Of a stretch of 64,000 nucleotides of DNA, positions 9,519-34,468 are shown piece after piece (position 1 is the stretch's first letter; each line of letters begins with the position of its first letter). The DNA comes from an uncultured bacterium (GTDB lineage: Bacteria > Patescibacteriota > Minisyncoccia > UBA6257 > GWB1-50-10). The position numbers were made by a program, and so were the translations under genes. Below the pieces are notes generated by a model. It saw only the letters and a program-made list of their open reading frames with translations. It was not told where the DNA came from and did no database searches. Location: positions 98,612 to 162,611 of the forward strand of contig CAVRNT010000001.1 of the NCBI GenBank assembly GCA_963722655.1, written 5' to 3'.

Positions 9519-9533
9519 GGCGATGATACGTCG

Positions 9534-10937: not shown

Positions 10938-10944
10938 ATGCCGT

Positions 10945-11981: not shown

Positions 11982-13738
11982 TTTTCTTGTAATCCTTTTA
12001 TCTCGAGCATCTGCTCCGGATTCGTCGTGATGATCTGGTCCTCGGTGTAGGAGGCGATGATTTTGATCGCAACGTGCTTCAGCCCCGCGAAGAAGAGTCC
12101 CTCGCCGACCGCGGCCTCCAAAAGGAAGGCCTTCTCGCCCTCGGTGAGGCCGAAGGCCTTGGCGACGGCCTCGATGCTCGTCGGGGACTGTTTTAATAGT
12201 AGCTGAAGCGATGAGTTGGAGATGATCGGCGCGCCGTATTCCGACTTAATGAAGTCGTCCACGTCCTGGGTGATGGTCGTGACGCCGAGGAAGTACTTGC
12301 GGGCGCGCTTCACGAGCCCGAAGAGGAAGGAAGCACTGTCCTTGTATTTCATCATCCACCAGGCCTCGTCGATCACGAGCATCCGCTGTTTCAAAGACGA
12401 CCGGATGAGGTTCCAGACGAAGTTCAATACGATGTACATCGCGATCGGCCGGAGCTCTTCCTCGAGATCGCGGATTGAGAAGACGATGAGGCGGTTCTTG
12501 ATATCCACGTTCGTTGGGGCGTTCGTGAAGCCGGAGTAGGAGCCGTTCACGTATTTATCCAAACGCGCCGCCATTCCCCGGCCGCCCTCGCTGCTTTGGA
12601 GGACGGTCTGAAGATCGCCGAGGAGGGGCGGATTCAGTTCTTTGAGCGAACCGAAGTTATCGGCCGTGATGTCGCGGGAGGCGTAGGTCTCGGTGATCGC
12701 CCGGTCGAGCATCGCCTCCTCCTCCGGCGTGATCTTGCCGAGCATCAGCTTCACTAATCCGGTGAGGTTCAGGATATGCGACTTAAAGACGTCGGCCGGC
12801 TCCTCTCCCTCGGGGATGATCGGGATGTCGAACGGGTTCACGTGGCTTTCGGAAGTGAGGGAGATCTTGAAATAGCTGCCGCCGATCGCGTTCGCGAGGT
12901 TCTGGTACTCGTTCTCCGGATCGATGACGAGGACGTCCGTGCCCATCATCATCGAGCGGAGTATTTGGAGCTTGGTGGCGTAGGACTTGCCCGAACCGGA
13001 TTTGGCAAAGACAACCATATTGGCGTTCTCGAGCGAGAACCGGTCGAAGATGATGAGCCCGTTGTTATTCAAATTAATGCCGTACATCGTGCCAGTCTCA
13101 GAAGAGAGGTCCGGCGAGACGAAGGGGAAAAGCGACGAGGCCGGACCGGTGTTTAGGGGCGTCCGCAAGGCGAGTTTGTCCTCCCCGAGGGGCAGAACGG
13201 AGGTCAATCCTTCGGTTTGGCGGAAAAGCGCCGGTTTGGCGTAGACCAGCTTGCTTTCCAGGGCGTTCACGACAGTCTCCTCAAGAGTCTTGAGGTCCTC
13301 TTGGGTCGAGGCGTAGAGGGTGATGTAAACCCCGACTTCGAAAAGCCGCTCCCGCGCCTGCTGAAGGGAGTCCCGGAGGGTCTCTACGTCCTCGTGGGCG
13401 GTCTCAAGGACCGGGTCGCGGACGATGCCCTTCGCCTCCTTCTCATTCATCTCGGCCTCGATCTGGGCCACCTTCTTCCGCAGGTTCCGAAGGGCGAGCG
13501 CCGTGTCCATCGGATGCATGAAGATCGAGATGTCGATCATCGCTGGCAAATTTATAATGGACGAGAACCAACCGCTCGTGACGAATCGCGGATAGGTGAA
13601 GATGAAGATTGTCTTCGTGAAGTAATCGCCGATCTTCAAATAGTTGCTCCCCACCTCTAATCCGGCGGGGGCGATGATGTTCGGCAGGTCCTCTTCGCCC
13701 GGCTTGTAGGCCTTGGGTATTTTGATCTCGTCGCTCAT
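11978..13738 (-). CDS. VirB4/TrbE/CagE-family type IV secretion ATPase (C-terminal ATPase part)
   Basis: 586 aa. Walker A VVFAKSGSGKSYATK, Walker B LVIDEAWWMM and VirB4-like overall organisation. Confidence 0.75.
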   Translation of the reverse strand: MSDEIKIPKAYKPGEEDLPNIIAPAGLEVGSNYLKIGDYFTKTIFIFTYPRFVTSGWFSSIINLPAMIDISIFMHPMDTALALRNLRKKVAQIEAEMNEKEAKGIVRDPVLETAHEDVETLRDSLQQARERLFEVGVYITLYASTQEDLKTLEETVVNALESKLVYAKPALFRQTEGLTSVLPLGEDKLALRTPLNTGPASSLFPFVSPDLSSETGTMYGINLNNNGLIIFDRFSLENANMVVFAKSGSGKSYATKLQILRSMMMGTDVLVIDPENEYQNLANAIGGSYFKISLTSESHVNPFDIPIIPEGEEPADVFKSHILNLTGLVKLMLGKITPEEEAMLDRAITETYASRDITADNFGSLKELNPPLLGDLQTVLQSSEGGRGMAARLDKYVNGSYSGFTNAPTNVDIKNRLIVFSIRDLEEELRPIAMYIVLNFVWNLIRSSLKQRMLVIDEAWWMMKYKDSASFLFGLVKRARKYFLGVTTITQDVDDFIKSEYGAPIISNSSLQLLLKQSPTSIEAVAKAFGLTEGEKAFLLEAAVGEGLFFAGLKHVAIKIIASYTEDQIITTNPEQMLEIKGLQEK

Positions 13739-14385
13739 TGGGTTATCACCTCTTTCTTTTCGACCAGCTGCGGGTTGTAGAGATTGTAGAAAAGTTCCAC
13801 GAGGTCATCGTCCTCCAAAGGCACTGCCCGGAGGCCGATCTGATTCAAGCCGGTGATGACCTGCTCGGTGCGGCGGCGGAGCTGTTCCAAGTTCTCTTGG
13901 AGCGAGGCCTCTTCCGCGGCCTTCGCGGCCGATTTACCTCCCGAAAAGAGCGAGAGCAGCCCCTTGGAGCCGCCGCCGGGGACGACCACCGGGTCGTAAG
14001 GCACAACGGCGAAGAAAGTCTTCGTAATAATGGCGTTCTGTTCAACGAAGTTCCGGATGAAGTTGACATACTCGTCAATCTGGATCTTCAAGAGCTCGTT
14101 CGTTTCCTCGGCCTTGCGCGCCTCCATCAGCTTCAGGTATTTTTCCACGTTCACCTTCCGCGAGTGGATGAAGAACTGAACGGCGAAATCCAGTGCGTTC
14201 AGGAAATTTTGGAAGCCGCCGAGGATAAGGTTCTGCTCCTCCTCGGATTTGAGCTCGAAGTTGACCCCGCCGACGATGAGGACCTGCCGGAGGGATTTGT
14301 TCTTGAGGTAGACGACGCCGTCCTTGATGGATTTCACCTCCACGAACTCCTGCGACGGTTTGGTTGGCTGTTGTTTCTCCGCCAT
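13735..14385 (-). CDS. VirB4 N-terminal-domain-like protein (split VirB4?)
   Basis: 216 aa. VEVKSIKDGVVYLKNKSLRQVLIVGGVNFELKSEEEQNLILGGFQNFLNALDFAVQFFIH resembles the VirB4/TraC N-domain. Overlaps the ATPase ORF by 4 nt; 216 + 586 aa is about full-length VirB4. Confidence 0.45.
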   Translation of the reverse strand: MAEKQQPTKPSQEFVEVKSIKDGVVYLKNKSLRQVLIVGGVNFELKSEEEQNLILGGFQNFLNALDFAVQFFIHSRKVNVEKYLKLMEARKAEETNELLKIQIDEYVNFIRNFVEQNAIITKTFFAVVPYDPVVVPGGGSKGLLSLFSGGKSAAKAAEEASLQENLEQLRRRTEQVITGLNQIGLRAVPLEDDDLVELFYNLYNPQLVEKKEVITQ

Positions 14386-14399
14386 TTTATCTTATTTTA

Positions 14400-14891
14400 T
14401 CAGTAATCTATCCTTTTTGCTTGCTTGCGCTCGCCCGTGAGATAGACGACCGTCTCGTATCCCTGCTCCTCGCCCTTTTGCGCCTTCAGCGCAAAGAACT
14501 TACCGGTCGTGATGTTCAAAGCGACGTTCTTGAGCCGTTCCTCCAGGCCCATCTTGTGCCGGAGGTTCTCGATGTCCGTCAACTTGTTCAGGTCGATCGT
14601 GGTCGTCGGGTTGATCCTTTGCCAGGTGTAGACCCGGGGTTGCCAGAAATAAGTGAGTGCCGAGGTAACAATCTTCGGGAACTCCTGGCCGTTGATCTTC
14701 AAAAAAGCGAAAGCGAGGCCGATCATGCCGACGATCACCGTCACAATGACGGCGAAGAAGAGATTGAAGATTTGGAAGGAGATGTAGCCCAGAAGGGCCG
14801 CCCCGCCCACGTAGAAGAACTGTTGGAGAGTGAGGAAGCCGACGATCTTCGGCTTCTGTTCTATGAATTGTGGAATTTGGAAATTAGCCAT
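14400..14891 (-). CDS. Small two-TM membrane protein, VirB3-like candidate
   Basis: 163 aa with two hydrophobic helices (FFYVGGAALLGYISFQIFNLFFAVIVTVIVGMIGLAFAFL); sits directly upstream of the VirB4 parts. Confidence 0.35.
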   Translation of the reverse strand: MANFQIPQFIEQKPKIVGFLTLQQFFYVGGAALLGYISFQIFNLFFAVIVTVIVGMIGLAFAFLKINGQEFPKIVTSALTYFWQPRVYTWQRINPTTTIDLNKLTDIENLRHKMGLEERLKNVALNITTGKFFALKAQKGEEQGYETVVYLTGERKQAKRIDY

Positions 14892-16305
14892 TGCTCAAGT
14901 CGACGGTGTTGCCTTCGATTTTCGGCTCCGGCTTTTTGATGGCGCCGAGTATCGCCGGCGTTGCCACCCCCGCGGGAGACGTTTGTGGATCGGAGGACGC
15001 GACCATCGGCTTCACCGCGGTCGGCGCCGCGAACGTCTTTTCCGGCATGTTCTCCGCCTTAGGTTTGATGGTCATGGCCGGCTTTCCCATCGTTTCGGAG
15101 AGCGTTCCTGCGGCCGCCGGTATCGGCATTTCTTCCGGAAGCGGTTTTACCTCACCAACGTTCAGAAAAGCTGGTTCCTCCAAGGCACCGAGGGGCGTGC
15201 GGGTCTCGCTATAATGTACGACCCGTTTCTCTTCCGATTTGATCCCCGGTATCTCCAATTTCGCGAAGGCCGACCTCGGTTCCCCGGTCGCCGGTCTCTT
15301 CTTGAGGAAGAATCCACCGAGGGGCGCGGTAACGCTCCGGAAGACGGACTTCTGGGAAGCGATGTTCCCCTCCGGCACAATCTCTTCGTGGAGAATGAAC
15401 GGCGTCTCCGTTTTTTGTTCCTTGAGCGTGACGGACGACGTTTCTACTGGGATCGATTCTTCTTCCTCGGCACCGCCGATGTTCTCCAAAGAAACTACTC
15501 TTTCAGCCGTCGGCTTTATTTCACCCATAGGTTCATAGATGGAACTAATTGAACCGGTCAGACCACCGACGATGCCGGCTTCGATATCGGATGCTATTTC
15601 ATCGCATATCCTTTGGTCGATGCCAAGTTTCTCTTGCAAGGTCTTAAGCAGGTCGTCGGGGTGAACGAAACCTAAGATCACTTGCCCTACCACTGCTGCC
15701 ACTTGACTGGTTTTGTCATCGCTCAGATGGTGGTTAATGCACGTTCTATATGTGGTTTCCGCTCCCTCGTACGAATACATCGCGCGCCGGAGGTTGTCCG
15801 GAATAAAACGGTACCTTTTGAGGGTTTTCTCGAGATTGCTGTCACCGAGGGATTTCGGGTAAAGTCCGATATCCTGGCCGGGTGCCGCGATGACGAAATT
15901 GTAAATTGACTGTCTTTGCGTTTTGAGCCACCCCAACTTGCTGTTGTCCGTTTGACCGGGAATAGATCGCCAGAAAAGCCTTTCGAACCTGTCTTGGGAA
16001 TCCGGCGACAGGTTTTGTAGCACGATGCTAAATGCCTTGCCGTTCGCGCTGTTCAGAACCGCTCGCACGAGCGCCGGCTGGGCGTTCTTCGTCCAATCAT
16101 CATCACTTAGATCGCCCAAGACCATTGGGAGGCCGGAGAAAACGCCCTCCCAATAGACCGCTTCCCAATCCTCTAATGAAAAACCGCTTAGCAAACTCTC
16201 CAAGCCCCGCTCGGCTGCTGTAAACTGTTTCTTTTGGAGTGGTGCCCAAATAGACTCGTCCCAAGTCGGGAGCACACTCAATATTGTTTGAATATCTTCT
16301 TCCAT
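14884..16305 (-). CDS. Hypothetical protein of T4SS-like operon
   Basis: 473 aa with a Pro/Ala/Glu-rich C-terminal half; no recognised motifs. Confidence 0.4.
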   Translation of the reverse strand: MEEDIQTILSVLPTWDESIWAPLQKKQFTAAERGLESLLSGFSLEDWEAVYWEGVFSGLPMVLGDLSDDDWTKNAQPALVRAVLNSANGKAFSIVLQNLSPDSQDRFERLFWRSIPGQTDNSKLGWLKTQRQSIYNFVIAAPGQDIGLYPKSLGDSNLEKTLKRYRFIPDNLRRAMYSYEGAETTYRTCINHHLSDDKTSQVAAVVGQVILGFVHPDDLLKTLQEKLGIDQRICDEIASDIEAGIVGGLTGSISSIYEPMGEIKPTAERVVSLENIGGAEEEESIPVETSSVTLKEQKTETPFILHEEIVPEGNIASQKSVFRSVTAPLGGFFLKKRPATGEPRSAFAKLEIPGIKSEEKRVVHYSETRTPLGALEEPAFLNVGEVKPLPEEMPIPAAAGTLSETMGKPAMTIKPKAENMPEKTFAAPTAVKPMVASSDPQTSPAGVATPAILGAIKKPEPKIEGNTVDLSNG

Positions 16306-16310
16306 AACCG

Positions 16311-18167
16311 TTATTTTTTACCGCCACCCCCTCTGCCACCGCTGGGTGGTTTCGGTGCGCCGCCTTCCTTTTCTTCCCCCCCATCCTCTTCGTTGATCGC
16401 TTTTATCGCCTCCTCGACCTTCTCCGTTTTGCCTGGCGTGGCGAGGTATTCTTTACCGACCTGACCATAAGCCTTGCCAAGTTTTGTATTCTTGAGTTCA
16501 AAGCCGGCATCTTCGAATGTTTTTCGAGCACTCTTTGGTAATTGAGCCATAATATCTTCCATTGCCGCCGCCGCCTTTAGCGCATCATCGACGTTTTTAT
16601 CGATTTTAACCTTGTTCGCCTTCGCCGCAGCCAGCTCTCTCTCTGCGGCGCTAATTTCCTTAATATCTTTGCCTCGCTCGGCGATCCTAAGATTTTTTTG
16701 GGCAGTATCCACGGCATCGCCCGCATCTTCTTGATTTTTAAGTAGGGGATCTACTGCATCTTTCCGTTTCTTCTTCTCCTTCAGAAGGTCGGAAGCAATA
16801 GCCACACGCTCAGCATTGTTGGCATGAGCGTATCGCTGTGCCTTATCTTTTAGATTCTTCGGCAGTTTTTTGGTGGCATCCGCTATTTGTTTTTCAACTT
16901 TGGCTCGCTGCTCGGCCAAAGCATTGCCGGCTAAACGCACCTGTCCGGTGATCGGGGCAGCGATCGGTTTGAGCCACGACGGAAGATTTTGGCCGAATTT
17001 CTGCATTCCGCCGACAATATTGCGGCCCGCCTGAGTGCGGAGAGGTGCCGTCGCCATTCTGGCCGATGCTTTCCCGGCCCATCCCCTAACTTGTTTGCCT
17101 GTGCTTTTAGCGATATTAATCGCCCCCGCCGCGCCCGCGATGCCCATGCTCTTCGCGGCGATGAGTCCGCCGAGAAGGATACCGGCGAGGACCACCATCT
17201 GGGCGCCCTGGCTGAAGGTCGTCTCGAGGACCGAGCCGACGGAGCCACCCGTTGAGATCTGGGCGGAGCCCAAAAATTGGGCGCCGGTCAGGGCCACGTA
17301 GATGAAAAACGAGACGGCCGGAGCGAAGAAGACCCAGTCCAAGAACTTGCTCCACCATTCGTTGAAGAGCTTATTGAGCGGCGGAAAGACCCAGAAGAGC
17401 CAGACTAGAGGCGCGACGATGAGAAGGAAAGAAAGATACACGTAGCGGATGAGGAGCATTAAGGCGAGTGCGATCATCACGAGTGCAGCGATGGCGGTAA
17501 AGGCCGTCGTGAAGATCAGCCCCGCGATGCTCGTGAGGGCCGCCGCCGTCACCCCGCCCGCGGCGCTACCCTGATCCGCCGGGTTCGGCGGTTCCGGGTT
17601 TTCCGGCGGGAGAAGGAGCTTCTGCGGCGCGAAAGCGTTGTCGATCGCCGAGACCATATCGCCACTCATCTTGCCGTTAAGAAAAACGTTCGTGAGGGAG
17701 TTCGAGAAGGTGATGAAGATGCCGGCGATGGTCAAGCTGAAGTTGACGATGATCGCGGCGCCGATGAGCTTCGGCAATAAGCTCTTGGCGCTGAATCTCT
17801 CGTAGCGGACGATGGTTGCGACCGCGACGATGATCATCATGAGGACGAAGCCAAGGTTCGCCACGTCGCGGGCGATCGTCCAGCCGACGCCGACGAGCGC
17901 GTTGTTCTGGTTCAAAATGTCAGCGTTCAAGTGCATCATCAAGTTCACCAAGAAGCCGCCGAGGATGAAGAGCAGTCCGAAGACGAAGTTCAGGATGAAG
18001 GCCAGGATGCGGAAGACCATCGTGGCGACGCCGGCCGGGCTGAGGTCGAGGAGGCCGAAAAGCGCCGCGTGGGTCGTCTGCGGCATCACCAAAAGCGGTA
18101 GGGCGATCAGGGCGCCGATCAGGGCAATCTTCAAAATTCTTGTCACTTGTTGCTTATTTCCTGTCAC
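16311..18167 (-). CDS. Polytopic membrane protein, VirB6/TrbL-like, with C-terminal Lys-rich coiled-coil tail
   Basis: 618 aa; the first ~330 aa have at least 6 TM helices; the C-terminus is charged coiled-coil ending GGRGGGGKK. Confidence 0.5.
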   Translation of the reverse strand: MTGNKQQVTRILKIALIGALIALPLLVMPQTTHAALFGLLDLSPAGVATMVFRILAFILNFVFGLLFILGGFLVNLMMHLNADILNQNNALVGVGWTIARDVANLGFVLMMIIVAVATIVRYERFSAKSLLPKLIGAAIIVNFSLTIAGIFITFSNSLTNVFLNGKMSGDMVSAIDNAFAPQKLLLPPENPEPPNPADQGSAAGGVTAAALTSIAGLIFTTAFTAIAALVMIALALMLLIRYVYLSFLLIVAPLVWLFWVFPPLNKLFNEWWSKFLDWVFFAPAVSFFIYVALTGAQFLGSAQISTGGSVGSVLETTFSQGAQMVVLAGILLGGLIAAKSMGIAGAAGAINIAKSTGKQVRGWAGKASARMATAPLRTQAGRNIVGGMQKFGQNLPSWLKPIAAPITGQVRLAGNALAEQRAKVEKQIADATKKLPKNLKDKAQRYAHANNAERVAIASDLLKEKKKRKDAVDPLLKNQEDAGDAVDTAQKNLRIAERGKDIKEISAAERELAAAKANKVKIDKNVDDALKAAAAMEDIMAQLPKSARKTFEDAGFELKNTKLGKAYGQVGKEYLATPGKTEKVEEAIKAINEEDGGEEKEGGAPKPPSGGRGGGGKK

Positions 18168-18180
18168 TTGTTTAATTTAC

Positions 18181-19776
18181 CTATCTGTTGGCTTCGCACT
18201 GCTGTTGTTTGTTTTGGGCCGCCGCAAGGGTTATTTGAATGCCAGAGAGCATAATCTGGACGTTGCTATCTAAGTTGGCCGCAGTCATTGTGAGGTTGGC
18301 GACATTGCTAGAATCAACGCTATTTAGCGTACTGGACGTGACATTCGGGTCACCGATGATGCCAATCAGCGTGTTGACCGAAACCGTTGAAGAAGTAACC
18401 TGAACCGCCGCTTGTTGTAACGCGGCGGGCGTCGAACTCACGGCGATCGTCAGATTCTCCTGAGCCCAGCCGTAGTCGGGGTTGACGGGATTAGTGCCCA
18501 AGCAACCAATGAGCCCGGTAATTGGCCCGCCCAACGTCGTTATTAGGGTTTGATTGGTGCTAGAAGCGGTCGCGAGCGTCGTTGATGCGTCGGCGAGCGA
18601 ACTTGCGGCCTGGTTCAGTTGGGTCATGTACTGGCTCTGGAGCGCCGTGTTTATGGTATTAGTGTAGTTATTTGCCGCTGTGATCGTCGATGTGTTATTG
18701 GTCAGTGATTCCGGAGACGGCGCGTTTGGACCGCTAGACGGCTGGCCGCCGTTCGTCGCCGAAAGGATGACCCCTTGCAGGCCCTGCACCCCCGCCTTGA
18801 TCAGTCGGTTAAAGGCGGCGTCGGCGATCATTGCGATCGCGTTCGTTATATCCGGATCGCTGATGGTGAGATCGAGGTTAGCGTACAGCGATTTATTCAA
18901 GCCCTCTGCGAGAGCGGCGCCCGGCGTGGAGATCTTAAGATCGGCGCACTTCCACTGAAGTGTCGTTGGGTCCACGCCCGGCGCGACCAATGCTGGATCG
19001 AGGAAGTTCGGGGTGCCGCTGATGGGCGACGGCGGATTGTCCTGATCGGTGAGATTAGAAGGGGCCGGTACTGTCTGGGAGCCGACGGGCGTTCCACCTT
19101 GGATCTTGATGAGCCGCCAGCTGACGCATGACTGTGATTGGAACCCGACGTTCACTTGGGTTTGGAGGACGTTCTGAGCCGTAACCTGCTGAGCGTTGTT
19201 GTAAAGGGTGTCTTGGGTGATGATGTCTACGCCGTACTGGTTGTTCTGCGGCGCAAGGAGTTCGTAGTAGCCGATGACGCCGCCGGCGTCGAACCTGTTC
19301 CAGAAATCGTTGAAATTCGCGACGATGGAATTGAGCGTGCAGGAGCTCGGCTGGACCTGCGGGCTGGGGGCGGTTAGCTCCAGATTGACCTTGAAGCTGA
19401 ACGGGGAACAAAGGGTCGGCAGGATCGCCTGGGCCGTGTCCCCGACCGCTTGGTTCAGCGCTGGCTGGAAGACCCCTTGGCCGAAATTCTGGATGAACTT
19501 CGGGCTGCCGCCGCCGTTTATCCAGGTGATTATCTGATCGGTCATCGTGTCGATAATCCGCTTTTTAAGTGCGGACAAGGCAACTTTCAAGAGATTATCT
19601 TGCACCCATTGCCACACGCTTTGCGTTTTAGCCGCAGTGGTTATGTTTTGTAATGTTGGGTCGGAAACCAACATCACTCCAGCTACTTGAGCTTTTGCTG
19701 TTGGCGTAAAAAAACCGGGAGCCGAAATAACAGTAACAATGCCAAAAATTAAAACTGCGGTAAGAAATTTTTTCAT
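18181..19776 (-). CDS. Secreted Thr/Ser/Asn-rich hypothetical protein
   Basis: 531 aa with signal peptide (MKKFLTAVLIFGIVTVISAPGFFTPTAKA) and low-complexity T/S/N/Q-rich regions. Confidence 0.4.
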   Translation of the reverse strand: MKKFLTAVLIFGIVTVISAPGFFTPTAKAQVAGVMLVSDPTLQNITTAAKTQSVWQWVQDNLLKVALSALKKRIIDTMTDQIITWINGGGSPKFIQNFGQGVFQPALNQAVGDTAQAILPTLCSPFSFKVNLELTAPSPQVQPSSCTLNSIVANFNDFWNRFDAGGVIGYYELLAPQNNQYGVDIITQDTLYNNAQQVTAQNVLQTQVNVGFQSQSCVSWRLIKIQGGTPVGSQTVPAPSNLTDQDNPPSPISGTPNFLDPALVAPGVDPTTLQWKCADLKISTPGAALAEGLNKSLYANLDLTISDPDITNAIAMIADAAFNRLIKAGVQGLQGVILSATNGGQPSSGPNAPSPESLTNNTSTITAANNYTNTINTALQSQYMTQLNQAASSLADASTTLATASSTNQTLITTLGGPITGLIGCLGTNPVNPDYGWAQENLTIAVSSTPAALQQAAVQVTSSTVSVNTLIGIIGDPNVTSSTLNSVDSSNVANLTMTAANLDSNVQIMLSGIQITLAAAQNKQQQCEANR

Positions 19777-20573
19777 GAAGCCAATGATTGATATTGCGCT
19801 TGCATGGTTTGTTGAACCGTCAAATTCTCATTGAGAATATCGTTGATTTGGTTCAAACCGATAACCGCCTTAGCTGGATCGTTCGCGAGGTCGGCGATGG
19901 CCGAGAAGACAGTTATTTTCTCTTCCCAAAGGTTGATGTTAGAAAGGTGCCAGGCCGCCCAGTTGTTCGGCGCGCGCAAAGCCAAGAGGTCCACGACCTC
20001 CTGGTTTGCGATCGCGATGTACTGGTTTAGGGCTGAAGTGTCGTTGTTGTTAAAAAAGTTCGATACCATCTTGTCCATCGGCGTCTTAAAAGAGCCGAAA
20101 TCCTTTTGGGTGATCGCTCCTACGGCGGCGAGGTATTGGAGCTGGCTCGTTGTCGAAACATCGTCCGATGTCAGAATATCCTCCGGAGCGTAGGTTTTGT
20201 ATTGGAGCTTTTGGTTGATGGCTTGAGAGAGGAGTTGACTCGTCTCGTCCACGGACGGGAAGCTGATAGGGTTGGAGCCGGTCGCACTCGCGCCGGCGAA
20301 GCCGCTGTTCATCTGGAAAACGGTTTGGGCGTAGTTTTGCGTCAAAAGGTCGGTGAGATTATCCGTTACCGCTGCGGTCCCGCTCGCAGTGCCGCCGTTG
20401 TTCATCGGTCCGCGGTTCGCGCTCACGGTGTAGTCCAAGCTGCCGTCTGCACCAGCGCCAGTCTTGGCCGTGACCAAGGGTGCGTTACTTGACGAAGACG
20501 CCCCGATGATGACGAAAAATAGAGCGATTCCGCCCAAAAGAACGATCGCGGCGATGATTTTTCGTCTTTTCAT
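19773..20573 (-). CDS. Membrane-anchored/secreted hypothetical protein
   Basis: 266 aa with N-terminal TM helix (IIAAIVLLGGIALFFVIIGAS); first gene of the operon in transcription order. Confidence 0.4.
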   Translation of the reverse strand: MKRRKIIAAIVLLGGIALFFVIIGASSSSNAPLVTAKTGAGADGSLDYTVSANRGPMNNGGTASGTAAVTDNLTDLLTQNYAQTVFQMNSGFAGASATGSNPISFPSVDETSQLLSQAINQKLQYKTYAPEDILTSDDVSTTSQLQYLAAVGAITQKDFGSFKTPMDKMVSNFFNNNDTSALNQYIAIANQEVVDLLALRAPNNWAAWHLSNINLWEEKITVFSAIADLANDPAKAVIGLNQINDILNENLTVQQTMQAQYQSLAS

Positions 20574-27457: not shown

Positions 27458-27539
27458 TGCCCTCGAGAGGATTTGAACCTCTAACCCTTGCGGGACAGCG
27501 TCCTAAGCGCTGCGCGTATGCCAATTCCGCCACGAGGGC
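27458..27539 (-). tRNA. tRNA-Leu (anticodon UAG), type II with long variable arm
   Basis: Hand-folded cloverleaf: acceptor GCCCTCG/CGAGGGC, anticodon loop CTTAGGA, variable arm TCCCGCAAGGGTT, T-loop TTCAAAT; CCA is not encoded. Confidence 0.8.
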
Positions 27540-27598: not shown

Positions 27599-27668
27599 TT
27601 AGGCAGAATTATTGTCACAATTAAGACTATCGGAATTGAAAGAAACTCGGAATAAAAGCGGAGGTTGT

Positions 27669-27887
27669 ATGTCTATACCAGAAACGCCGGCAGAAGAGGT
27701 CAAGAGAAAACTGAAACAGATCGGCAAGACGGTCGGCCGAGTTGTCAGAAATCTTGACGACGACCTCATCCACGGCATTGCTTCTCTGCATGAAAACAAG
27801 AAGGTCCAGAGTTTTACGAAAGGACTCCTCAAGACGTGGAGAGATGTCCTGAAAGAGCTTGATAACGAAAAGAAAGAAAAACCTTGA
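27669..27887 (+). CDS. Hypothetical small protein (gene 1 of 3-gene operon)
   Basis: 72 aa from the ATG after RBS GGAGG (MSIPETPAEEVKRKLKQIGKTVGRV...); low-GC codon usage; the ORF-track start at 27612 is less likely. Confidence 0.35.
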   Translation: MSIPETPAEEVKRKLKQIGKTVGRVVRNLDDDLIHGIASLHENKKVQSFTKGLLKTWRDVLKELDNEKKEKP

Positions 27888-27907
27888 AACTTGAAAGGAG
27901 GTTTATT

Positions 27908-28306
27908 ATGCAAATGGGTTTCGCGATCCCCTCGAAAGGCAAAAAACATCGAGGTGAATCGGACGGCGACAAGCAAAAGCCGAGAGAGGTTCTTAACGTT
28001 GAGGTGGTTGGGCCGAAAGGCAGACAAAAACTATTCATCTCCGTTAGCATGGAGAACGGTGGTCTGATAGCAGACGCCGAAGGTGTCTTGATCGACGGCT
28101 TGATCTCTAAAGAATTCACAACCGGACAAAGCGGAATTTATGTCCACGAAGTTAAGTTCGATGGAAACGAACCAACTCGCGTTATCAGAGTTAAAATTGG
28201 CGATGGACCGATTCATAACTGGGAATCAGTCATTATGAACACAAAACCGCCGCGACTTCAACTAAGTCCAATAACAGCCGAACTAGAAAGGAGGTTTCCC
28301 GTATGA
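27908..28306 (+). CDS. Hypothetical protein (gene 2 of 3-gene operon)
   Basis: 132 aa from the ATG after RBS AGGAGG (MQMGFAIPSKGKKHRG...); the stop of gene 1 overlaps this region; no recognised motif. Confidence 0.35.
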   Translation: MQMGFAIPSKGKKHRGESDGDKQKPREVLNVEVVGPKGRQKLFISVSMENGGLIADAEGVLIDGLISKEFTTGQSGIYVHEVKFDGNEPTRVIRVKIGDGPIHNWESVIMNTKPPRLQLSPITAELERRFPV

Positions 28307-28872
28307 ACCTGAAATCGATTTGGCAATGGATCATTACATTCGGTGGTGATGTCCTCGCCGCCATTTGGGGCAGTAAGCTTGCTGCCGAAGATGGTAACAA
28401 ACCTGTTGGTGGTGCAAGCCCGGGTAAGATTCTTGGAGGATACCTCCAAGAAAAACTAGCCGAAAAGCTTGATCGCGGCACTCTACTCCATGAACTTCAT
28501 ACCATAAACGCTGATACCCAAGGCGGCATCCAGAAACTTATGGAACTCTACCTCGAACTCCAGGTGAAACACGTCATCTTCGTCGGGAATCAGGCCTACA
28601 CGGAAGACGAACTGGGGTTGATGCTTATGCAGATACCAGTAGATGAACGTAGCACGGAGTATGTTATTTTGAACGACGTGCTTGTAGAACAGGGCCGTGA
28701 AGCCTTATTCTCTCAATTGGAAATACTGCGCAACAACAAGCTCCAACAAAAACTCGAAAAATTCGACGCCGTGGCCAAAAAGAAGATCGGCGAAGTTGCG
28801 GAGCCGATTAAAAATGCGGCCCGCAAGAACAGGGAGAACAAGGGCTATGTCATCCCTTCATACCTCGAATAG
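28303..28872 (+). CDS. Hypothetical protein (gene 3 of 3-gene operon)
   Basis: 189 aa; start overlaps the gene 2 stop (ATGA coupling); no recognised motif. Confidence 0.4.
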   Translation: MNLKSIWQWIITFGGDVLAAIWGSKLAAEDGNKPVGGASPGKILGGYLQEKLAEKLDRGTLLHELHTINADTQGGIQKLMELYLELQVKHVIFVGNQAYTEDELGLMLMQIPVDERSTEYVILNDVLVEQGREALFSQLEILRNNKLQQKLEKFDAVAKKKIGEVAEPIKNAARKNRENKGYVIPSYLE

Positions 28873-28893
28873 GTAGTTGTAATCATTCAAAAA

Positions 28894-28922
28894 CCCGCTT
28901 CATCGGAAGCGGGTTATTATTT
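28894..28922 (+). terminator. Rho-independent terminator CCCGCTTC-atcg-GAAGCGGG + TTATTATTT
   Basis: Perfect 8-bp stem, 4-nt loop and T-rich tail, read directly. Confidence 0.7.
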
Positions 28923-28949
28923 GACAAATTACATATATTATGCTAATAT
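28921..28949 (+). promoter_or_regulatory. Sigma70-type promoter TTGACA-17nt-TAATAT
   Basis: Read directly; lies upstream of the membrane-protein gene at 29027. Confidence 0.45.
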
Positions 28950-29026
28950 TCACCCAGTTTCTCATAATAGAAAATTAGTGGGATTGATAGAAAAACCTAA
29001 ATAAACCCTTAATAAGGAGGTCTAAA

Positions 29027-30109
29027 ATGCTTTCCGAATTGCTGAAAATGATCGCCTCTATCGGCGACAAGCCGGTGGTCGATTTTGTCGATATGGCGAG
29101 AAAGCTCGCCTTCATCAAAAAACCGCAAGAGCGATCGGTTTGGTCTGTGTATCTTCAGGCGTTGCTACGCTATGCCCTAGCGATTACCATCGCTCCGATG
29201 GTGTTGCTGGCCATAGGCATCGCAACCGACTGGAACTGGTTGATTGGGATCGTCGGCGTATTTTGGTCAATCTGCACTATCTTGATCTTCGTGATTGCCG
29301 CGCCTGTCGGGGTCCTAATTGAAATGATTGCTGACTACCCTTCCGGATTCGGTAAGAATTATGTCCATACGGTCGGTAAGGTGCTGGCCATGGAAACAGC
29401 GTTTGCTTTCGGCGCAATGATCGTTCCTGTCGGCAATAATCCGAATATTTTGCCGGTGGCGATCGTCGCGGTGATACTGCTCGCTTGGTTTTCTTGGTCT
29501 GGATCACAGGTGATAAAGGGTAAGAAGCCGAATAAGTTGGCAACGAAGCTCGTTGGCTCGGTCCTGACTATCACCATACTCGCTTTCTTCTTTCCGAATA
29601 TCCTTCCGGTCGGAAGTAGTTGGATTCGTTGGGCAAACGAAAAAGTCTTGGATCTTAAAAAACCAGGACTTCCTCTCGCTCCGTTGGCCACTAGCCAAGC
29701 CGAACTGAACCAAGCGATAGCGCAGGCGCAACAAACGCAGAGCCCAATGCCTCCGGGAATGCAGGCAAACGTGTCTGCACAACCGATACAGCCGGCGGAT
29801 ATCCGTTTCGCTGGCAACGAGACATCAAAGGATGTTCCCTACACAACCGCCAGATGCACTCCCTGGGTTTATCTTCCCAGGACCACTGGTAGCTGGTCTA
29901 CGGATTTGACCCCCGCTCTTACTACACCAGGACAATCGATATCCATCTATTGTCTTGATGGTAGGAAGTTCACGAGGACGTACGATCATAATCCGGTCAT
30001 CTACCCAACACCTCAGGCCATCTCCATCGTCGGGGATAACTGCGAGGGGACGGCGACGATAAACATCCTACGTCTAGGTCATGGACAAGTGGCAATGTTG
30101 AGCCACTAA
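29027..30109 (+). CDS. Polytopic membrane protein with C-terminal extracytoplasmic Cys-containing domain
   Basis: 360 aa; 5-6 TM helices in the first 200 aa, then a Gln/Pro-rich linker and a C-terminal domain with 4 Cys; RBS AAGGAGG. Confidence 0.45.
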   Translation: MLSELLKMIASIGDKPVVDFVDMARKLAFIKKPQERSVWSVYLQALLRYALAITIAPMVLLAIGIATDWNWLIGIVGVFWSICTILIFVIAAPVGVLIEMIADYPSGFGKNYVHTVGKVLAMETAFAFGAMIVPVGNNPNILPVAIVAVILLAWFSWSGSQVIKGKKPNKLATKLVGSVLTITILAFFFPNILPVGSSWIRWANEKVLDLKKPGLPLAPLATSQAELNQAIAQAQQTQSPMPPGMQANVSAQPIQPADIRFAGNETSKDVPYTTARCTPWVYLPRTTGSWSTDLTPALTTPGQSISIYCLDGRKFTRTYDHNPVIYPTPQAISIVGDNCEGTATINILRLGHGQVAMLSH

Positions 30110-30174
30110 GTCCAAGTTCATCGAGCGCGAGCTCGGCGGGCGCGAGAAAACAAAACCTCGCGCCCTTTTATTTT

Positions 30175-31512
30175 CTAAATTCCGTACGTGTATGGGGCGA
30201 CAATAAGAAATCCTGTGACGGTCAAAACCGCTATCGCGATGAGCGCGAGGCGCGCGGCGAAGTCGTTTTTCTCAATCAGCTTTCCGACGAAGATTCCGGC
30301 GAGGGCGATGGCGAAAAGCAGCGCCGGGAAGTAGTGATAGAGAAATGTGGCGCGATGGACAATGGTGAAAAACGGCATGAGACAAAAAATATAACCGACC
30401 ATAAGAAGCAAGGCCGGTTTCATTTTTTCGTCAAAAAATCGCTTAACCCCGCTTTTGATCGTGAGCCAAAGCGCACCGATGACCGCGGTCGTCGAGGCGA
30501 GCCAGACGAACGGATTGCCGACGAGAACGATCCGCTTCGTGAATTCCATTGGTTTCCACATAAAAGGCCAGGCGTACCACGGGCTCATTAGTGGGTGAGA
30601 GGCCCCGCTCGTGTAGCCGGTTACCATTAAAAGTCCATTAACTATTACCGCTTTGACCGCCGCAATCGTCCGCGGAACGTTTTGATAAGCCCCGGTGATC
30701 TTTTGGAGTATCGGCCAGCCGAAAAGCCCAACGTCATAGCTTAAATACGCATTCGGGCGGGCGACGATACCACTCAAGCCTAATTCGGCAAAAACGAGCA
30801 CGATGAGCGCGGCGACGGCGAACTTCCAGAAAACGCTCTTAACGTCCTCTTTCGGGATTCTCGACCAGCCAATTAAAAGTGCAGCGACGATCGGGCCGAT
30901 AAAAACTATCGCCGTGAGCTTAACACTCAAAGCAAGGCCGAAAAGCAGTCCGGCAACGGTGGGTCGCGGTCTTTCTTTGAGAAAAAAATAGAGGGACCAT
31001 AGACCGAAAGCAATGTACATTCCGTCCATTAGGACCAGGCGAGTGTCCAAAAGTAGCGCGTTTTCGAATATCAAAAGGAACGTGCCGGCGATGGCGGCAA
31101 TGGGGCCGGCGAGCGCTCGTACGAGAAGATAGAAACCGGCGATCATCAGCAGGCCGAAAAGGACGCTGACGACTCTTAGGGGAACATAGGGGAATTGGCC
31201 GTACGGCACCGGGTTATAGTTGGTTTGGAGATTATCCGTCGCGACATTGTGATTGAAAGTAACATAATCGGCACCGGCCAAATCCACCCGCGGATAGAAG
31301 AGAAGCGGCAAAGCGTAGATCCATTTACCGAGGGGTGGATGGACATCGAAAAATATTTTTCCCGTAGCGTTATCAGCGGCGTAGGTCGTAAAATAGGCCT
31401 CGTCAAAGACCGGTTCGGCTGGCAAGACGATGCGATAGAGATGCAGAAAGGCGCTTAGAAGGACCAAAAAAATAAAAGCGACTGTTTCATATCGCTTCAA
31501 AAAATCCGCCAT
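30175..31512 (-). CDS. GT-C family glycosyltransferase (GT39 PMT / ArnT-like)
   Basis: 445 aa, polytopic; N-terminal loop carries EPVFDEAYF, consistent with the DE motif of PMT/ArnT-type GT-C enzymes. Confidence 0.6.
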   Translation of the reverse strand: MADFLKRYETVAFIFLVLLSAFLHLYRIVLPAEPVFDEAYFTTYAADNATGKIFFDVHPPLGKWIYALPLLFYPRVDLAGADYVTFNHNVATDNLQTNYNPVPYGQFPYVPLRVVSVLFGLLMIAGFYLLVRALAGPIAAIAGTFLLIFENALLLDTRLVLMDGMYIAFGLWSLYFFLKERPRPTVAGLLFGLALSVKLTAIVFIGPIVAALLIGWSRIPKEDVKSVFWKFAVAALIVLVFAELGLSGIVARPNAYLSYDVGLFGWPILQKITGAYQNVPRTIAAVKAVIVNGLLMVTGYTSGASHPLMSPWYAWPFMWKPMEFTKRIVLVGNPFVWLASTTAVIGALWLTIKSGVKRFFDEKMKPALLLMVGYIFCLMPFFTIVHRATFLYHYFPALLFAIALAGIFVGKLIEKNDFAARLALIAIAVLTVTGFLIVAPYTYGI

Positions 31513-31515
31513 ATT

Positions 31516-31836
31516 TTATTGCGCCTTGATGACGTTGGTGACTATCGTCTGGACGCCGCTTGCTAGAAGCGCCACGGCCGCCGCGATCACGGCGTAGAGG
31601 ATAATCCTCTTCGCTTTGGTAATCTTTTCGTCGTCGCCGCCGGCCGTGACGAAAAGTATCGCCGCCCAGATGAGCATCCCGACCGCGATTATCCAAAAGA
31701 TGCCAAAAAGGTAGTTCACCCAGTTATTGAGGGTGTTTTTAACGTCCGTAATCGATGTAATGGGCGGTGTTTGAGCGGCGGCGATCGCTGGGAGGAAGAA
31801 AACCGTGAGTGCGCCGAGCGTCTTTTTGATCATCAC
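31516..31836 (-). CDS. VirB2/TrbC-like pilin paralog 1
   Basis: 106 aa; signal peptide ending AIAAAQ, then helix-AGGDDEKITKAKR-helix. Confidence 0.55.
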   Translation of the reverse strand: MMIKKTLGALTVFFLPAIAAAQTPPITSITDVKNTLNNWVNYLFGIFWIIAVGMLIWAAILFVTAGGDDEKITKAKRIILYAVIAAAVALLASGVQTIVTNVIKAQ

Positions 31837-31901
31837 TTTTATAATACAACTTTATGTAAAAAAACAAACCCCGCTTGGCGGGGTTTGTTCATCGATCGAT
31901 T

Positions 31902-32261
31902 TTAGGAGGTTGAACCAAGCAAGAGCCGTGTGACAATCGCTTGTAGACCGGTCGAAAGGAGGGCGATGGCCGCCGCGATGATCGCGCCGATAACGCGCTT
32001 CTTCGCTTGGCCGATCTTTTCTTCGTCGCCGCCAGCCGTGAGGTATAGGACCGCCGCCCAGATCAGGAATAATACAGTGATTATCCAGAAGATGGTGATG
32101 AGCCAGTTGATGATGTTGGTCAAACTGCCCTGCGCTTGGCCCAAGGATGTAATCGGGGCCACCGCCGTGATTCCCGGCGGTTGCTGAGCCAGCGTCGCGA
32201 GCGGCGTGACGATGGCCATCGTCATTACCGCAACGCTCACGATTTTTTCGAATTTCGTCAT
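31902..32261 (-). CDS. VirB2/TrbC-like pilin paralog 2
   Basis: 119 aa from the internal Met (MTKFEKIVSVAVMTMAIV...LTAGGDEEKIGQAKKR...); the 210-aa ORF-track version has an implausible Arg-rich extension. Confidence 0.5.
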   Translation of the reverse strand: MTKFEKIVSVAVMTMAIVTPLATLAQQPPGITAVAPITSLGQAQGSLTNIINWLITIFWIITVLFLIWAAVLYLTAGGDEEKIGQAKKRVIGAIIAAAIALLSTGLQAIVTRLLLGSTS

Positions 32262-32293: not shown

Positions 32294-32701
32294 TTATTGA
32301 CTTAACAGACTTTGGATGATGGAAGTTATCCCCCAACCGATAAGAATTATAGCATAGCCGATGACGGCGTAAAGAACAGTCCTTTTGCCCGTCGCGAACT
32401 TCTCCTCGTTTCCGGCGGCGGTCACCATTTGTAACGCCCCTATAATAATCATACCGACTGCAATCGGTGTCGCGATGATCCATAACCAGTGGACGATGGA
32501 TTGTATGAGTCCTTCTACGGTGCCGTTCTGGCAATTGGTGCTCCCGCTCGTGCAGAGAGGGTTAAGTAAGGAAATTGCTGTGGGACCAGGCGAAAGTGGC
32601 CCAGCTTGGGCTAAAACAGTCGATACACCGGTACCAACCGCTAAGACACACAAAGCTCCACTTAGTCCCAAAACAATCAATTCTCTTCTCATTCGTTTCA
32701 T
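32294..32701 (-). CDS. VirB2/TrbC-like pilin paralog 3
   Basis: 135 aa; signal peptide, Cys pair (CTSGSTNC), then helix-AAGNEEKFATGKR-helix. Confidence 0.5.
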   Translation of the reverse strand: MKRMRRELIVLGLSGALCVLAVGTGVSTVLAQAGPLSPGPTAISLLNPLCTSGSTNCQNGTVEGLIQSIVHWLWIIATPIAVGMIIIGALQMVTAAGNEEKFATGKRTVLYAVIGYAIILIGWGITSIIQSLLSQ

Positions 32702-32702: not shown

Positions 32703-33140
32703 TTAGCACTGAATTTGGGCCCACGGGAAGTCCAGCCGGCCGGTCAGGACCTGGAAGAGCGTGTTCACAATGAGCCACCCGCAGAGGATGATGATGAGGC
32801 CGATGATCGCGCTCGTCATTATCTTTCTCGCCTCGCCGAAGTTGCTCTCAGAACCGAAGGAGACCATCATCCGGATCGCGCCGTAGACGATGAAGACGAC
32901 GGCGATGATTATCCCGAGGGGTACCGCGATGTTGTTTATGATGTTCCCGGCGACGATCACGGCATCGCAGGTCGAGCAGCCAATCGTGGAAGTGCCGGTC
33001 GTCGCGTTGCAGGTCTGGCCGCCCTGTCCCGTTCCCTGCCAGATGTTGAAGCTGAAGTTCGGCATCGCGGCCGAGGCCGTTTGGGCGAGAGCGCTGGAAA
33101 CGGCGATGATGGCGAAAGCGACGATTAAAATTTTATGCAT
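32703..33140 (-). CDS. VirB2/TrbC-like pilin paralog 4
   Basis: 145 aa from the internal Met (MHKILIVAFAIIAVSSALAQTASA...); Cys-rich mature N-terminus; helix-FGSESNFGEARK-helix. Confidence 0.5.
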   Translation of the reverse strand: MHKILIVAFAIIAVSSALAQTASAAMPNFSFNIWQGTGQGGQTCNATTGTSTIGCSTCDAVIVAGNIINNIAVPLGIIIAVVFIVYGAIRMMVSFGSESNFGEARKIMTSAIIGLIIILCGWLIVNTLFQVLTGRLDFPWAQIQC

Positions 33141-33157: not shown

Positions 33158-34468
33158 TTAACCTCCTATGTTCTGCGCGAGCTGGTAGATCTGGTTTTGA
33201 GCTTGAGTCAGAGCCGCTTGAACAGTCGTTTGGCCCGTGAGGACACTCTGGATCGTTTGAGAAAGGATCTGGGCATCGGCGGCCGGGTCGGCCTCGTACC
33301 ACGACTTCGCGATCAGGGCCTGTCTCGCGAAAGCGCTCAAGGTCGGGTCGCTTTCCTCATTATATATCACCTGGTTCAGGGCTGGTGGCTTGCCGGTCGC
33401 GGTCACGTAGGCGGCGGCGTTCGTCTGGTTCGTCGTCATATCCAGAATGAGGGTCCAGGCGAGAGCGGCGTGGGTGCTCTGTTTGGAGACGACGTAAGCC
33501 CAGTAGTTCGGGTAGGCCGCCACGACTCCGTTTTTGACCTGCGGCACCGGTACCGTCTCGATGTCGAGGAAAGGCTTCTGCGACTTTATCTGCGGAATGG
33601 CCGATTCGTAGTCGAAGATCATCGCTGTTTTGCCTTGGGCGAGGGCGTCAACTGGGTCGGGGAGCGTCGAGCTCCAGGTATAAACGGACGAGTTCGGTGA
33701 GCCGAACTGGACGTAGAACTGAAGGGCGTTCTGAGCCGCTTGGGAATTGAGGTTGAAGTTACCCGCGCGCGAGTCCAGGGCGACGCCGTTCTGGATCAAG
33801 AGAAGCGCCAGAAGATCGGAGGCGCGGGGAACGCTGTCGTTCGGGCCGCCGATCGCCGCCGCCGCTTGAATGATGTTCCCGGCCGCGTCCTTTTGCGTGA
33901 GCTTCGGGACGTTCGCCGTGAAATCGTCCCAACTCTGCCAGGTCGATGGGAGCGGCACGCCGGCCTGGTCGAAGAGCGAGCGGTTGTAGATCAAGGCGAG
34001 GGTGTCGATCGAGAGCGGCAGGCCGTAGACCTGACCTTGAGAAACGAAGTCCTGGACCACGACGGGCGGGAAAAGTTGTTGCAGGTTGAGGAGTGCGAAC
34101 TGGGTCTGGGGAACGGGCGTGATCTTGTTCAAATTTGGCTGGAGGTCCGTGTTCGGGACCATAAAGATGTCCGGTCCTTCGTTCGCCGCGAGGGCGTTCA
34201 AGACGGCCGCCTCGTACGTCTTAGCGTCGGGGAAGCTCCGGTAGTTCACCGTGACGTTCTTATATGTCTGGTTGAAACTTTGGATGGCGGCACCATAGGC
34301 CGATGACGGGTCGCCGACGCCCCAGAAGTTCAAAGTCGCCTTGATGTTCTGGGGGTTCGTCTGCTGATTTTGAAGTCCTGGCAGGATGCCGATGAAGACC
34401 AAGGCGAATATCAAAACCACGCCGCCCCCGACAGCGATCATTATGATTTGATTGTGAGAGAATTTCAT
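33158..34468 (-). CDS. ABC transporter extracellular solute-binding protein (family 1, sugar-type)
   Basis: 436 aa with N-terminal TM/signal anchor and SBP_bac_1-like composition; no cognate permease or ATPase in the window. Confidence 0.6.
   Translation of the reverse strand: MKFSHNQIIMIAVGGGVVLIFALVFIGILPGLQNQQTNPQNIKATLNFWGVGDPSSAYGAAIQSFNQTYKNVTVNYRSFPDAKTYEAAVLNALAANEGPDIFMVPNTDLQPNLNKITPVPQTQFALLNLQQLFPPVVVQDFVSQGQVYGLPLSIDTLALIYNRSLFDQAGVPLPSTWQSWDDFTANVPKLTQKDAAGNIIQAAAAIGGPNDSVPRASDLLALLLIQNGVALDSRAGNFNLNSQAAQNALQFYVQFGSPNSSVYTWSSTLPDPVDALAQGKTAMIFDYESAIPQIKSQKPFLDIETVPVPQVKNGVVAAYPNYWAYVVSKQSTHAALAWTLILDMTTNQTNAAAYVTATGKPPALNQVIYNEESDPTLSAFARQALIAKSWYEADPAADAQILSQTIQSVLTGQTTVQAALTQAQNQIYQLAQNIGG

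Follow-up and report, generated by a model that had tools for sequence, protein, structure and literature searches.

Introduction

Protein O-mannosyltransferase (PMT) genes of family GT39 occur in thousands of bacterial genomes, but nearly all work on them has been done in Actinobacteria (PMC11727336). In that group, Pmt modifies many Sec substrates with polyprenol-phosphate-mannose (PMC5882110, PMC11727336). Here, a PMT is described from a 64,000-nucleotide stretch of DNA of an uncultured bacterium of the Patescibacteria, also called Candidate Phyla Radiation (CPR) bacteria (contig CAVRNT010000001.1 of assembly GCA_963722655.1, positions 98,612 to 162,611; hereafter, the window). The gene (30175..31512, minus strand) encodes 445 amino acids (aa) and lies directly downstream of four VirB2-like pilin genes, termed w4, w3, w2 and w1 in order of transcription. 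With the actinobacterial enzymes (Mycobacterium tuberculosis Rv1002c and Streptomyces coelicolor Pmt, GT39), the window PMT shares a MIR-less architecture of a PMT and a PMT_4TMC domain, a DE motif in the first loop and an active site outside the cytoplasm; a polyprenol-phosphate-mannose donor and Ser/Thr acceptors in Sec-exported proteins are expected here too (PMC5882110, PMC11727336). In contrast to them, it is patescibacterial, is shorter (445 aa), belongs to an origin-proximal block beside VirB2-like pilins and is accompanied by no visible ppm1 gene in the window. The fungal Pmt4 and Pmt1-Pmt2 structures (PDB IDs: 9i5k, 9e61, 6p25) have the same transmembrane fold, and their catalytic and donor-binding residues can be matched to those of the window PMT. 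Unlike these proteins, the window PMT lacks the luminal MIR beta-trefoil between transmembrane helices (TM) 7 and 8, has Tyr40 in place of H87, and would use a bacterial polyprenol rather than dolichol as donor carrier.

Membrane enzymes that are encoded beside a pilin and O-glycosylate it are known from type IV pili. TfpO and PglL are oligosaccharyltransferases resembling Wzy_C/O-antigen ligases, which transfer preassembled glycans linked to undecaprenyl diphosphate onto type IV pilins. An earlier note on the window, made from the sequence alone, had invoked these enzymes as the analogy for a dedicated pilin-glycosylation function. The likeness is one of concept, and the analogy is loose because the pilins of the window are VirB2/TrbC-like (PF18895) and not type IV pilins; in addition, the enzyme carries no Wzy_C domain, and this part of the proposal does not stand. 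A closer counterpart, and functionally the best parallel to the pilin hypothesis, is TfpW of the group IV pilin loci of Pseudomonas aeruginosa, a GT-C arabinosyltransferase that is encoded directly downstream of pilA and is proposed to O-glycosylate pilin Ser/Thr residues in the periplasm from a polyprenyl-phosphate-monosaccharide donor (bioRxiv 10.1101/2020.04.19.049825). As judged from its description, TfpW differs from the window PMT in its GT-C family, its sugar (D-Araf) and its type IV pilin substrate.

Patescibacteria rely on surface appendages for attachment to host bacteria and for their exploitation. Arrays of 2-11 divergent PF18895/PF04956 genes for VirB2-like pilins have been described in this group, together with an MPF-FATA-like VirB4 type IV secretion system (T4SS) near dnaA (Quinonero-Coronel et al. 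2025, PMC12102498), and the layout of the window is exactly alike. According to work cited in that paper, epibiotic growth requires the arrays and the T4SS in the one species in which this was examined (cited in PMC12102498). PMT and mannosylation go unmentioned in the paper, and neither the pilin-PMT linkage nor the bicistron of w1 and PMT reported below appears in it (PMC12102498). A literature search returned no paper tying PMT to CPR bacteria or to VirB2-like pilins. Bacterial MIR-less GT39 enzymes are already known; the linkage to a VirB2-like pilin is apparently unreported and provides a testable lead.

The window PMT is a MIR-less member of family GT39

The open reading frame (ORF) at 30175-31512 of the minus strand is uninterrupted, and the segment EPVFDEAYF, in which the earlier note had recognized the DE motif of a GT-C PMT, spans residues 33-41, with the DE motif at D37-E38. 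This recognition is confirmed by the Pfam, PDB and fold matches. The PMT domain (PF02366) matches residues 15-240 with 74.8 bits (cut-off 22.7; E = 1e-20), and the PMT_4TMC domain (PF16192) matches residues 304-444 with 78.6 bits (cut-off 32.4; E = 5.7e-22). Of the two profiles that had been named for a check, PF02366 is therefore the stronger, as PMT_2 (PF13231) reaches 35.5 bits and overlaps a stretch already taken by the PMT domain; GT87 likewise gives a weak overlapping match. No NCBIfam model matches the protein. A MIR domain has no Pfam match on the protein, in which approximately 30 residues (~251-280) connect the helices that flank this domain in eukaryotes. The MIR-less state fits bacterial PMTs and places the protein outside the eukaryotic PMT1/2/4 subfamilies. 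An unrelated polytopic family such as O-antigen ligase, which had been raised as the contrary outcome, is not indicated: the best matches are to PMTs, and no Wzy_C or O-antigen-ligase domain matches in Pfam at E<=0.1.

Comparison with proteins of known structure leads to the same family. A phmmer search of all PDB chains returned fungal protein O-mannosyltransferases only (9i5k, 6p25 chains A and B, 9e61), with conserved blocks around the DE motif (paepvFDEayf in the window PMT, pdqvvFDEvhf in the fungal protein) and at ffDvHPPlGK, which is identical in both. When a profile of 24 homologues was compared with the PDB, strong matches were again confined to fungal PMT structures (ctPmt4, 9i5k, E = 9e-52), and the sole match outside the family was a weak one to a GPI mannosyltransferase. 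An AlphaFold2 (AF2) model built from the 24-sequence alignment (pLDDT 87.6, pTM 0.90) was searched against the PDB with Foldseek. The top seven matches are all fungal PMTs (Pmt4, Pmt1 and Pmt2; E = 8e-15 to 9e-10, TMq 0.72-0.78), followed at lower rank by STT3/AglB/PglB and ALG mannosyltransferases. The protein had been described as PMT/ArnT-like; the PMT (GT39) half of this description holds, and the ArnT half does not, as no ArnT structure is found in the Foldseek top 50 or among the profile-versus-PDB matches at E<=1e-3. In public sources, homologues are named 'dolichyl-phosphate-mannose-protein mannosyltransferase' or 'phospholipid carrier-dependent glycosyltransferase', and where a source gives organism names, these are exclusively of Patescibacteria/Parcubacteria. 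Neither the ORF nor the motif can be a product of chance, given the E-values and the conservation in relatives, and the gene appears from its sequence to encode a real and apparently active protein O-mannosyltransferase of the bacterial GT39 type in Patescibacteria (CPR).

The catalytic residues of fungal PMTs are retained

In the structure of ctPmt4, residues F83, D84, F669 and H87 touch the acceptor Thr, residues H105, K244, R666 and H672 hold the donor phosphate, and D197 is a putative metal ligand (PMC12705809). These roles were transferred to the window PMT through the phmmer and profile alignments. The acceptor contacts F83, D84 and F669 correspond to F36, D37 and F390, such that F36-D37-E38 aligns with F83-D84-E85 of ctPmt4. 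The donor-phosphate residues correspond to H58, K198, R387 and H393, and the putative metal ligand corresponds to D163, which is an Asn in some homologues. The mapped catalytic and donor residues are nearly invariant across 84 homologues; the DE motif is invariant in 24/24 alignment sequences and in 82/82 of those among the 84 homologues that cover the stretch. The C-terminal module carries the motif R-x-x-F-L-[HY]-H-Y, with R387, F390, Y392, H393 and Y394 conserved in homologues. The sole mapped residue that differs is the equivalent of H87, which is Y40 in the window PMT (window ~31393-31395). A Tyr occupies this position in 12/13 PMTs of the clade in which w1 is coupled to PMT (see below), and a His in most other homologues. 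A Tyr is also found in L056, L060 and L071, where PMT adjoins pilin-like genes, and in L061 and L077, where no pilins are nearby. The change in the coupled clade is a single phylogenetic event, and the pattern is not phylogenetically independent.

In solved PMTs, the loop between TM1 and TM2 that bears the DE motif is luminal (PMC12705809). On the strength of this homology, and because K6/R7 precede TM1 and loop 1 is acidic, the DE loop of the window PMT is assigned to the extracytoplasmic side, in support of the orientation that had been supposed for it. Taken together, the sequence predicts a catalytically competent MIR-less GT39 enzyme that is like actinobacterial Pmt and is not ArnT-like.

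The adjoining pilins are VirB2-like and have predicted exposed Ser/Thr-containing tails

As the earlier note had stated, PMT is located directly downstream of four co-oriented genes for secreted pilin-like proteins. All four are on the minus strand and score above the Pfam gathering cut-off of 26.6 bits for PF18895 (T4SS_pilin): w1 (31516..31833, 105 aa, VirB2/TrbC-like, 48.9 bits), w2 (31902..32261, 119 aa, VirB2-like, 32.8 bits), w3 (32294..32701, 135 aa, VirB2-like, 43.8 bits) and w4 (32703..33140, 145 aa, VirB2-like, 33.5 bits). The NCBIfam Mbov_0395 pilin-like model matches the pilins below its own cut-off only. With all four assigned to the VirB2/TrbC-like PF18895 family, a type IV pilin identity was ruled out. 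They share a layout of a signal peptide ending in x-L-A|Q, a tail rich in Ser, Thr, Pro and Gly, and two long hydrophobic helices joined by a short basic loop (AGGD[DE]EK..K.K[KR]). In w1 (GGDDEKITKAKR), the predicted exposed tail is QTPPITS and the basic loop would be cytoplasmic. The AF2 model of w1 (pLDDT 77.8) contains the signal-peptide helix (residues 3-19), a coil (20-27, AQTPPITS) and two helices (28-63 and 68-104). Foldseek found no significant match to this model in the PDB (best E = 1.1), which is unsurprising for a simple hairpin, and a pilin profile likewise had no match among PDB sequences.

Ser/Thr-rich acceptor segments had been suggested as a feature to look for in the pilins, and short exposed N-terminal tails rich in Ser, Thr and Pro were found. 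In w1 orthologues, the tail carries an invariant [IL]-T-S-[ILV]-x-[DQ]-V motif, in which T26-S27 is invariant in 13 orthologues. In the orthologue alignments, the w2 tail has a conserved P-[IV]-[TS]-S-L, the w3 tail has a Cys pair (CTSGSTNC), and w4 combines a long Ser/Thr/Gly-rich tail containing Cys residues with FPWAQIQC, conserved at its C-terminus. From sequence and model, the N- and C-termini of the mature pilins are predicted to be extracytoplasmic and the basic loop cytoplasmic; with both ends facing outward, the N-terminal tails would therefore be on the same side of the membrane as the PMT active site.

PMT forms an apparent two-gene operon with w1

The stop codon of w1 and the ATG of PMT are separated by 3 nucleotides (nt; aat-ATG). 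Directly 3' of the w2 stop codon, a terminator-like hairpin is present (31862..31890, minus strand; a 13-bp stem with 7 GC pairs followed by a T-run), which parts w4-w3-w2 from w1-PMT; RNAfold gives -22.5 kcal/mol for the 65-nt spacer in which it is located (window 31836-31901). The succession of hairpin, short spacer and w1 is also found in L001, L002, L004, L005, L006, L012, L014, L016, L019, L039 and L048. Within the spacer, a -10-like box (TATTAT, 31841..31846, minus strand) is positioned 4-7 nt upstream of w1 start codons, and a TATAAT-like box precedes w1 in most of the 11 related loci, with L016 lacking a clear one. A sigma-70 scan missed the box upstream of w1 because it has no -35 element, and a reading of the box as an 'extended -10' element was ruled out, as its TG is not at the canonical spacing. 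The short distance between box and start codon suggests that the w1-PMT mRNA may be leaderless. Upstream of w2, a promoter-like site at 32373-32346 matches at 10 of 12 positions and includes a TG; because of this site and the downstream terminator, w2 is a candidate major pilin. Together, these features indicate that w1 and PMT are apparently co-transcribed as a two-gene operon and would be translationally coupled. The 3-nt w1-PMT coupling is kept in ~12 species-level genomes, across which PMT identity is 42-70%.

At its 3' end, PMT faces a convergent 360-aa gene across a second 65-nt spacer, which contains a GC-rich hairpin (GGGCGCGAG-10 nt-CTCGCGCCC, 30138..30165). As its T-run is on the plus-strand side, this hairpin is assigned as the terminator of the plus-strand gene; it possibly serves PMT as well.

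Conservation of the pilin-PMT linkage in relatives

To place the locus among its relatives, one genome per GTDB species was scanned, which gave at least 484 relatives; the best 80 are mostly Patescibacteria, and the best 79 loci were retrieved. A hidden Markov model built from 30 pilins was run on all ORFs of these 79 loci, and adjacency was counted where at least 1 kb of upstream sequence was available. At PMT identities of at least 33%, a pilin gene on the same strand ends less than 500 bp upstream of PMT in 21/34 loci, and pilins occur within 10 kb in 29/34 and are missing in 5/34; across all loci with sufficient upstream sequence, the immediate adjacency is found in 27/71. The conservation of synteny that the earlier note had looked to is thus real for the pilin-PMT pair and less telling than hoped, as the whole backbone around it is conserved as well: S1< MBL> u163> gyrA> SBP> pilins> PMT> ... 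XerC< S15> NYN> PNPase> u385> ksgA>, where SBP is a solute-binding protein. No pilins are near PMT in L007, L021, L024, L027, L031 and L047.

The linkage persists through several rearrangements. Inversions in L051 and L056 have left PMT next to the array (convergent, 240-270 bp), as has a local rearrangement in L066, and the linkage is kept in L008, L023, L036 and L053, where two reversed genes without assigned function lie between the array and PMT; in L029 and L052, PMT is apart from the array. With each pilin classed by its best match to w1-w4, the usual array is w4-w3-w2. The arrangement w4-w3-w2-w1, with w1 abutting PMT, is confined to a clade with PMT identity of at least 42%; in more distant loci, some pilins match w1 best, at 26-51% identity. 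A different PMT lineage, in L060 (605-7380) and L071 (418-7830), is encoded 3-54 nt downstream of its neighbour in a cluster of a gene of no assigned family, a 192-aa PF18895 pilin-like gene, a beta-propeller-like gene, PMT, SecD and SecF. These two loci were dropped as independent evidence, since they represent one event among ~35 non-block loci, for which about one is estimated to be expected by chance.

Two further observations were made among these loci. In L003, a GIY-YIG endonuclease ORF (2264-2521) is inserted between two pilin genes; it is absent from L002, which encodes an identical PMT protein. In L047 (9983-11366) and L052 (8088-9438), the PMT sequence is divided between two overlapping ORFs, which may be pseudogenes or the result of assembly frameshifts.

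Proposed function and its alternatives

The window PMT is proposed to be a broad-specificity O-mannosyltransferase of Sec substrates that uses a polyprenyl-phosphate-hexose donor and has the pilins, especially w1, among its substrates, a tentative assignment drawn from sequence, with slightly less than even confidence. By homology, the enzyme would be a cytoplasmic-membrane protein whose active site faces outward, and it would transfer a hexose from a polyprenyl-phosphate carrier, with mannose the likeliest sugar, to Ser/Thr hydroxyls with inversion. In this mechanism, the base would be D37 of the DE motif, and the donor phosphate would be bound by H58, K198, R387 and H393. Sec-exported proteins would serve as acceptors through segments that are unfolded and extracytoplasmic, and the pilins would be modified through the Ser/Thr/Pro-rich tails left after signal-peptide cleavage. 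Because PMT apparently shares a transcript with w1 and is apparently coupled to it in translation, the four pilins are probable substrates; they are probably not the sole ones. A stronger form of this proposal, in which a GT39 PMT has been recruited into a VirB2-like pilin operon in one Paceibacteria lineage and mannosylates the exposed N-terminal tails, is considered doubtful.

Several observations weigh against the main proposal. We know of no biochemically characterized PMT from Patescibacteria, and no Ppm1-like (GT2) polyprenol-phosphate-mannose synthase was found among the scanned proteins of the 64-kb window. Solved bacterial conjugative pili are without glycosylation, and archaeal ones display diffuse extra density only (PMC9905601). 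The conservation of the T-S pair in w1 may be structural, as S27 caps the N-terminus of helix 1 in the w1 model and D30 completes an S-x-x-D capping box. Adjacency alone could reflect inherited gene order, given that the whole ~20-kb S1-ksgA backbone is conserved, and five loci at 35-40% PMT identity have no pilin within 5-10 kb. In relatives with PMT identity of 40% or less, a strong terminator follows the last pilin gene. In addition, six loci of distant relatives have a tRNA-Leu(tag) gene between the array and PMT (L020 9411-9493, L033 9627-9709, L038 9881-9965, L042 9869-9951, L045 9657-9738 and L049 9858-9940), the 3' end of which is 5-12 nt before the PMT ATG. The terminator and the tRNA gene in these relatives imply that PMT is generally a separate unit just after the pilin array. 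In the lineage of the window, a short pilin paralogue has been placed between the PMT start signals and PMT, which created the bicistron; this origin is compatible with either functional recruitment or simple hitch-hiking.

The latter possibility is central to an alternative in which PMT is a general O-mannosyltransferase of envelope proteins with no tie to the pilins. Here, the adjacency would be inherited order in an origin-proximal backbone, and w1, a duplicate related to w2, would have landed between PMT and its promoter and hitch-hiked since. The conserved block does hold unrelated housekeeping genes, the ancestral state appears to be w4-w3-w2, a terminator, in some cases tRNA-Leu, and then PMT with its own start signals, and orthologues exist in the six loci without nearby pilins. 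This alternative is nevertheless regarded as somewhat unlikely. Counting against it, the 3-nt coupling has been kept in ~12 species-level genomes at 42-70% PMT identity, and PMT stays by the array through the inversions in L051 and L056. Moreover, a membrane-inserted pilin with an exposed Ser/Thr/Pro tail is a substrate that a Sec-associated PMT would meet anyway. At the opposite extreme is a glycosyltransferase that serves the pilin array exclusively, in the manner of TfpO/PglL or TfpW on type IV pilins, as the earlier note had favoured. The tight w1-PMT bicistron, the invariant T-S in w1 with a similar motif in w2, the Tyr in place of H87 in the coupled clade and the second PMT lineage of L060 and L071 would all suit such an enzyme. 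As to the last two, the change to Tyr is one phylogenetic event and Tyr also occurs in two PMTs without nearby pilins, and L060/L071 are no more frequent than chance would allow. PMT is also transcriptionally apart from the pilins in most lineages, with a terminator and often tRNA-Leu intervening in distant relatives, and the adjacency belongs to a housekeeping backbone. A second Ser/Thr-rich envelope protein is encoded nearby: u163, a small single-pass membrane protein conserved upstream of gyrA (36948-37355, minus strand), has an Ala/Thr/Ser-rich ectodomain (PEVATATSSATTSFPGASGETKTGS) that resembles a typical PMT acceptor region and thus argues for a broader substrate range. To our knowledge, all known GT39 enzymes are of broad specificity, and a dedicated enzyme is judged quite improbable. 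It is highly improbable that the protein is an enzyme of the PMT fold that acts on a non-protein acceptor (a glycolipid or a polymer of the cell wall) or uses a different sugar from mannose, like ArnT or a YfhO-type GT-C enzyme. The weak overlapping PMT_2 and GT87 matches, the failure to find a Ppm1-like synthase in the window and the poorly known envelope chemistry of Patescibacteria would leave room for it. In opposition to this, protein O-mannosyltransferases alone make up the best matches in sequence and fold, with ArnT not among the top matches, and the acceptor-Thr residues F83, D84 and F669 are kept as F36, D37 and F390 (PMC12705809).

Overall, the locus presents an ordinary enzyme in an interesting neighbourhood, for which pilin glycosylation is a reasonable and unproven idea. 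We know of no post-translational modification of the VirB2-like pilins of Patescibacteria. In the assembled pilus, the pilin tails would make up the exterior; if they are mannosylated, the structure would be the first conjugative-type pilus known to be glycosylated, with a sugar coat that would modulate how the episymbiont recognizes its host bacterium or is protected from it. Action of PMT on pilins would add a layer to both T4SS pilus biology and bacterial O-mannosylation, and the two-gene cassette with its defined T-S site would offer an experimental handle. If the enzyme is instead a general PMT, the result is ordinary and still useful, as it extends Sec-coupled O-mannosylation machinery to CPR bacteria.

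Other genes of the window

Two genes of the window were considered for the donor pathway and set aside. The HAD-IIB protein at 48655-49413 (plus strand) matches a eukaryotic-type phosphomannomutase Pfam family (44.7 bits), with NCBIfam giving a generic HAD-IIB assignment only. The 494-aa membrane GT2 protein at 58784-60268 (plus strand; Glyco_trans_2_3, weakly PgaC-like) is unconvincing as a polyprenol-phosphate-mannose synthase.

Upstream of the array, a membrane-anchored solute-binding protein of the sugar type (SBP_bac_8/SBP_bac_1; 33158..34468, minus strand) is recognized from Pfam and synteny and occupies the interval from gyrA to the pilin array in almost every related locus. No gene for an ABC permease or ATPase adjoins it, which makes it an orphan. 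Convergent with PMT, three fast-evolving genes on the plus strand (27884..30109) encode proteins of 140 aa, 189 aa and 360 aa, the last polytopic with a C-terminal ectodomain. None has a Pfam, NCBIfam or PHROG match. The region 27600-30109 (plus strand), with three or four fast-evolving genes, is low in GC (0.48). Counterparts of similar size are present in relatives, and are located between the pilins and PMT in L008, L023, L036 and L053. Beyond three low-GC genes without assigned function, the window has its own tRNA-Leu(tag) gene, next to XerC (27457-27539, minus strand). The position of tRNA-Leu(tag) just before PMT in the distant relatives raises the possibility of a tRNA-mRNA co-transcript there.

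The T4SS cluster is located near dnaA, 10-20 kb from PMT (8304..20573, minus strand). It follows dnaN (3946-5049), dnaA (5213-6595) and YidC (7214-7873), and comprises, in order after YidC on the minus strand, proteins of 404 aa, 467 aa and 233 aa, VirB4, and four large proteins without family matches (14884-20573). Pfam matches in the cluster are to the TraG P-loop domain (VirB4), AAA_10 and T4SS_pilin. The VirB4 ATPase (11978-13738, minus strand) belongs to the CD1110 (monoderm) family (NF045971, 375.7 bits, cut-off 325), and the 467-aa protein (9534-10937, minus strand) joins an N-terminal PF18895 pilin domain to a long Cys-rich ectodomain.

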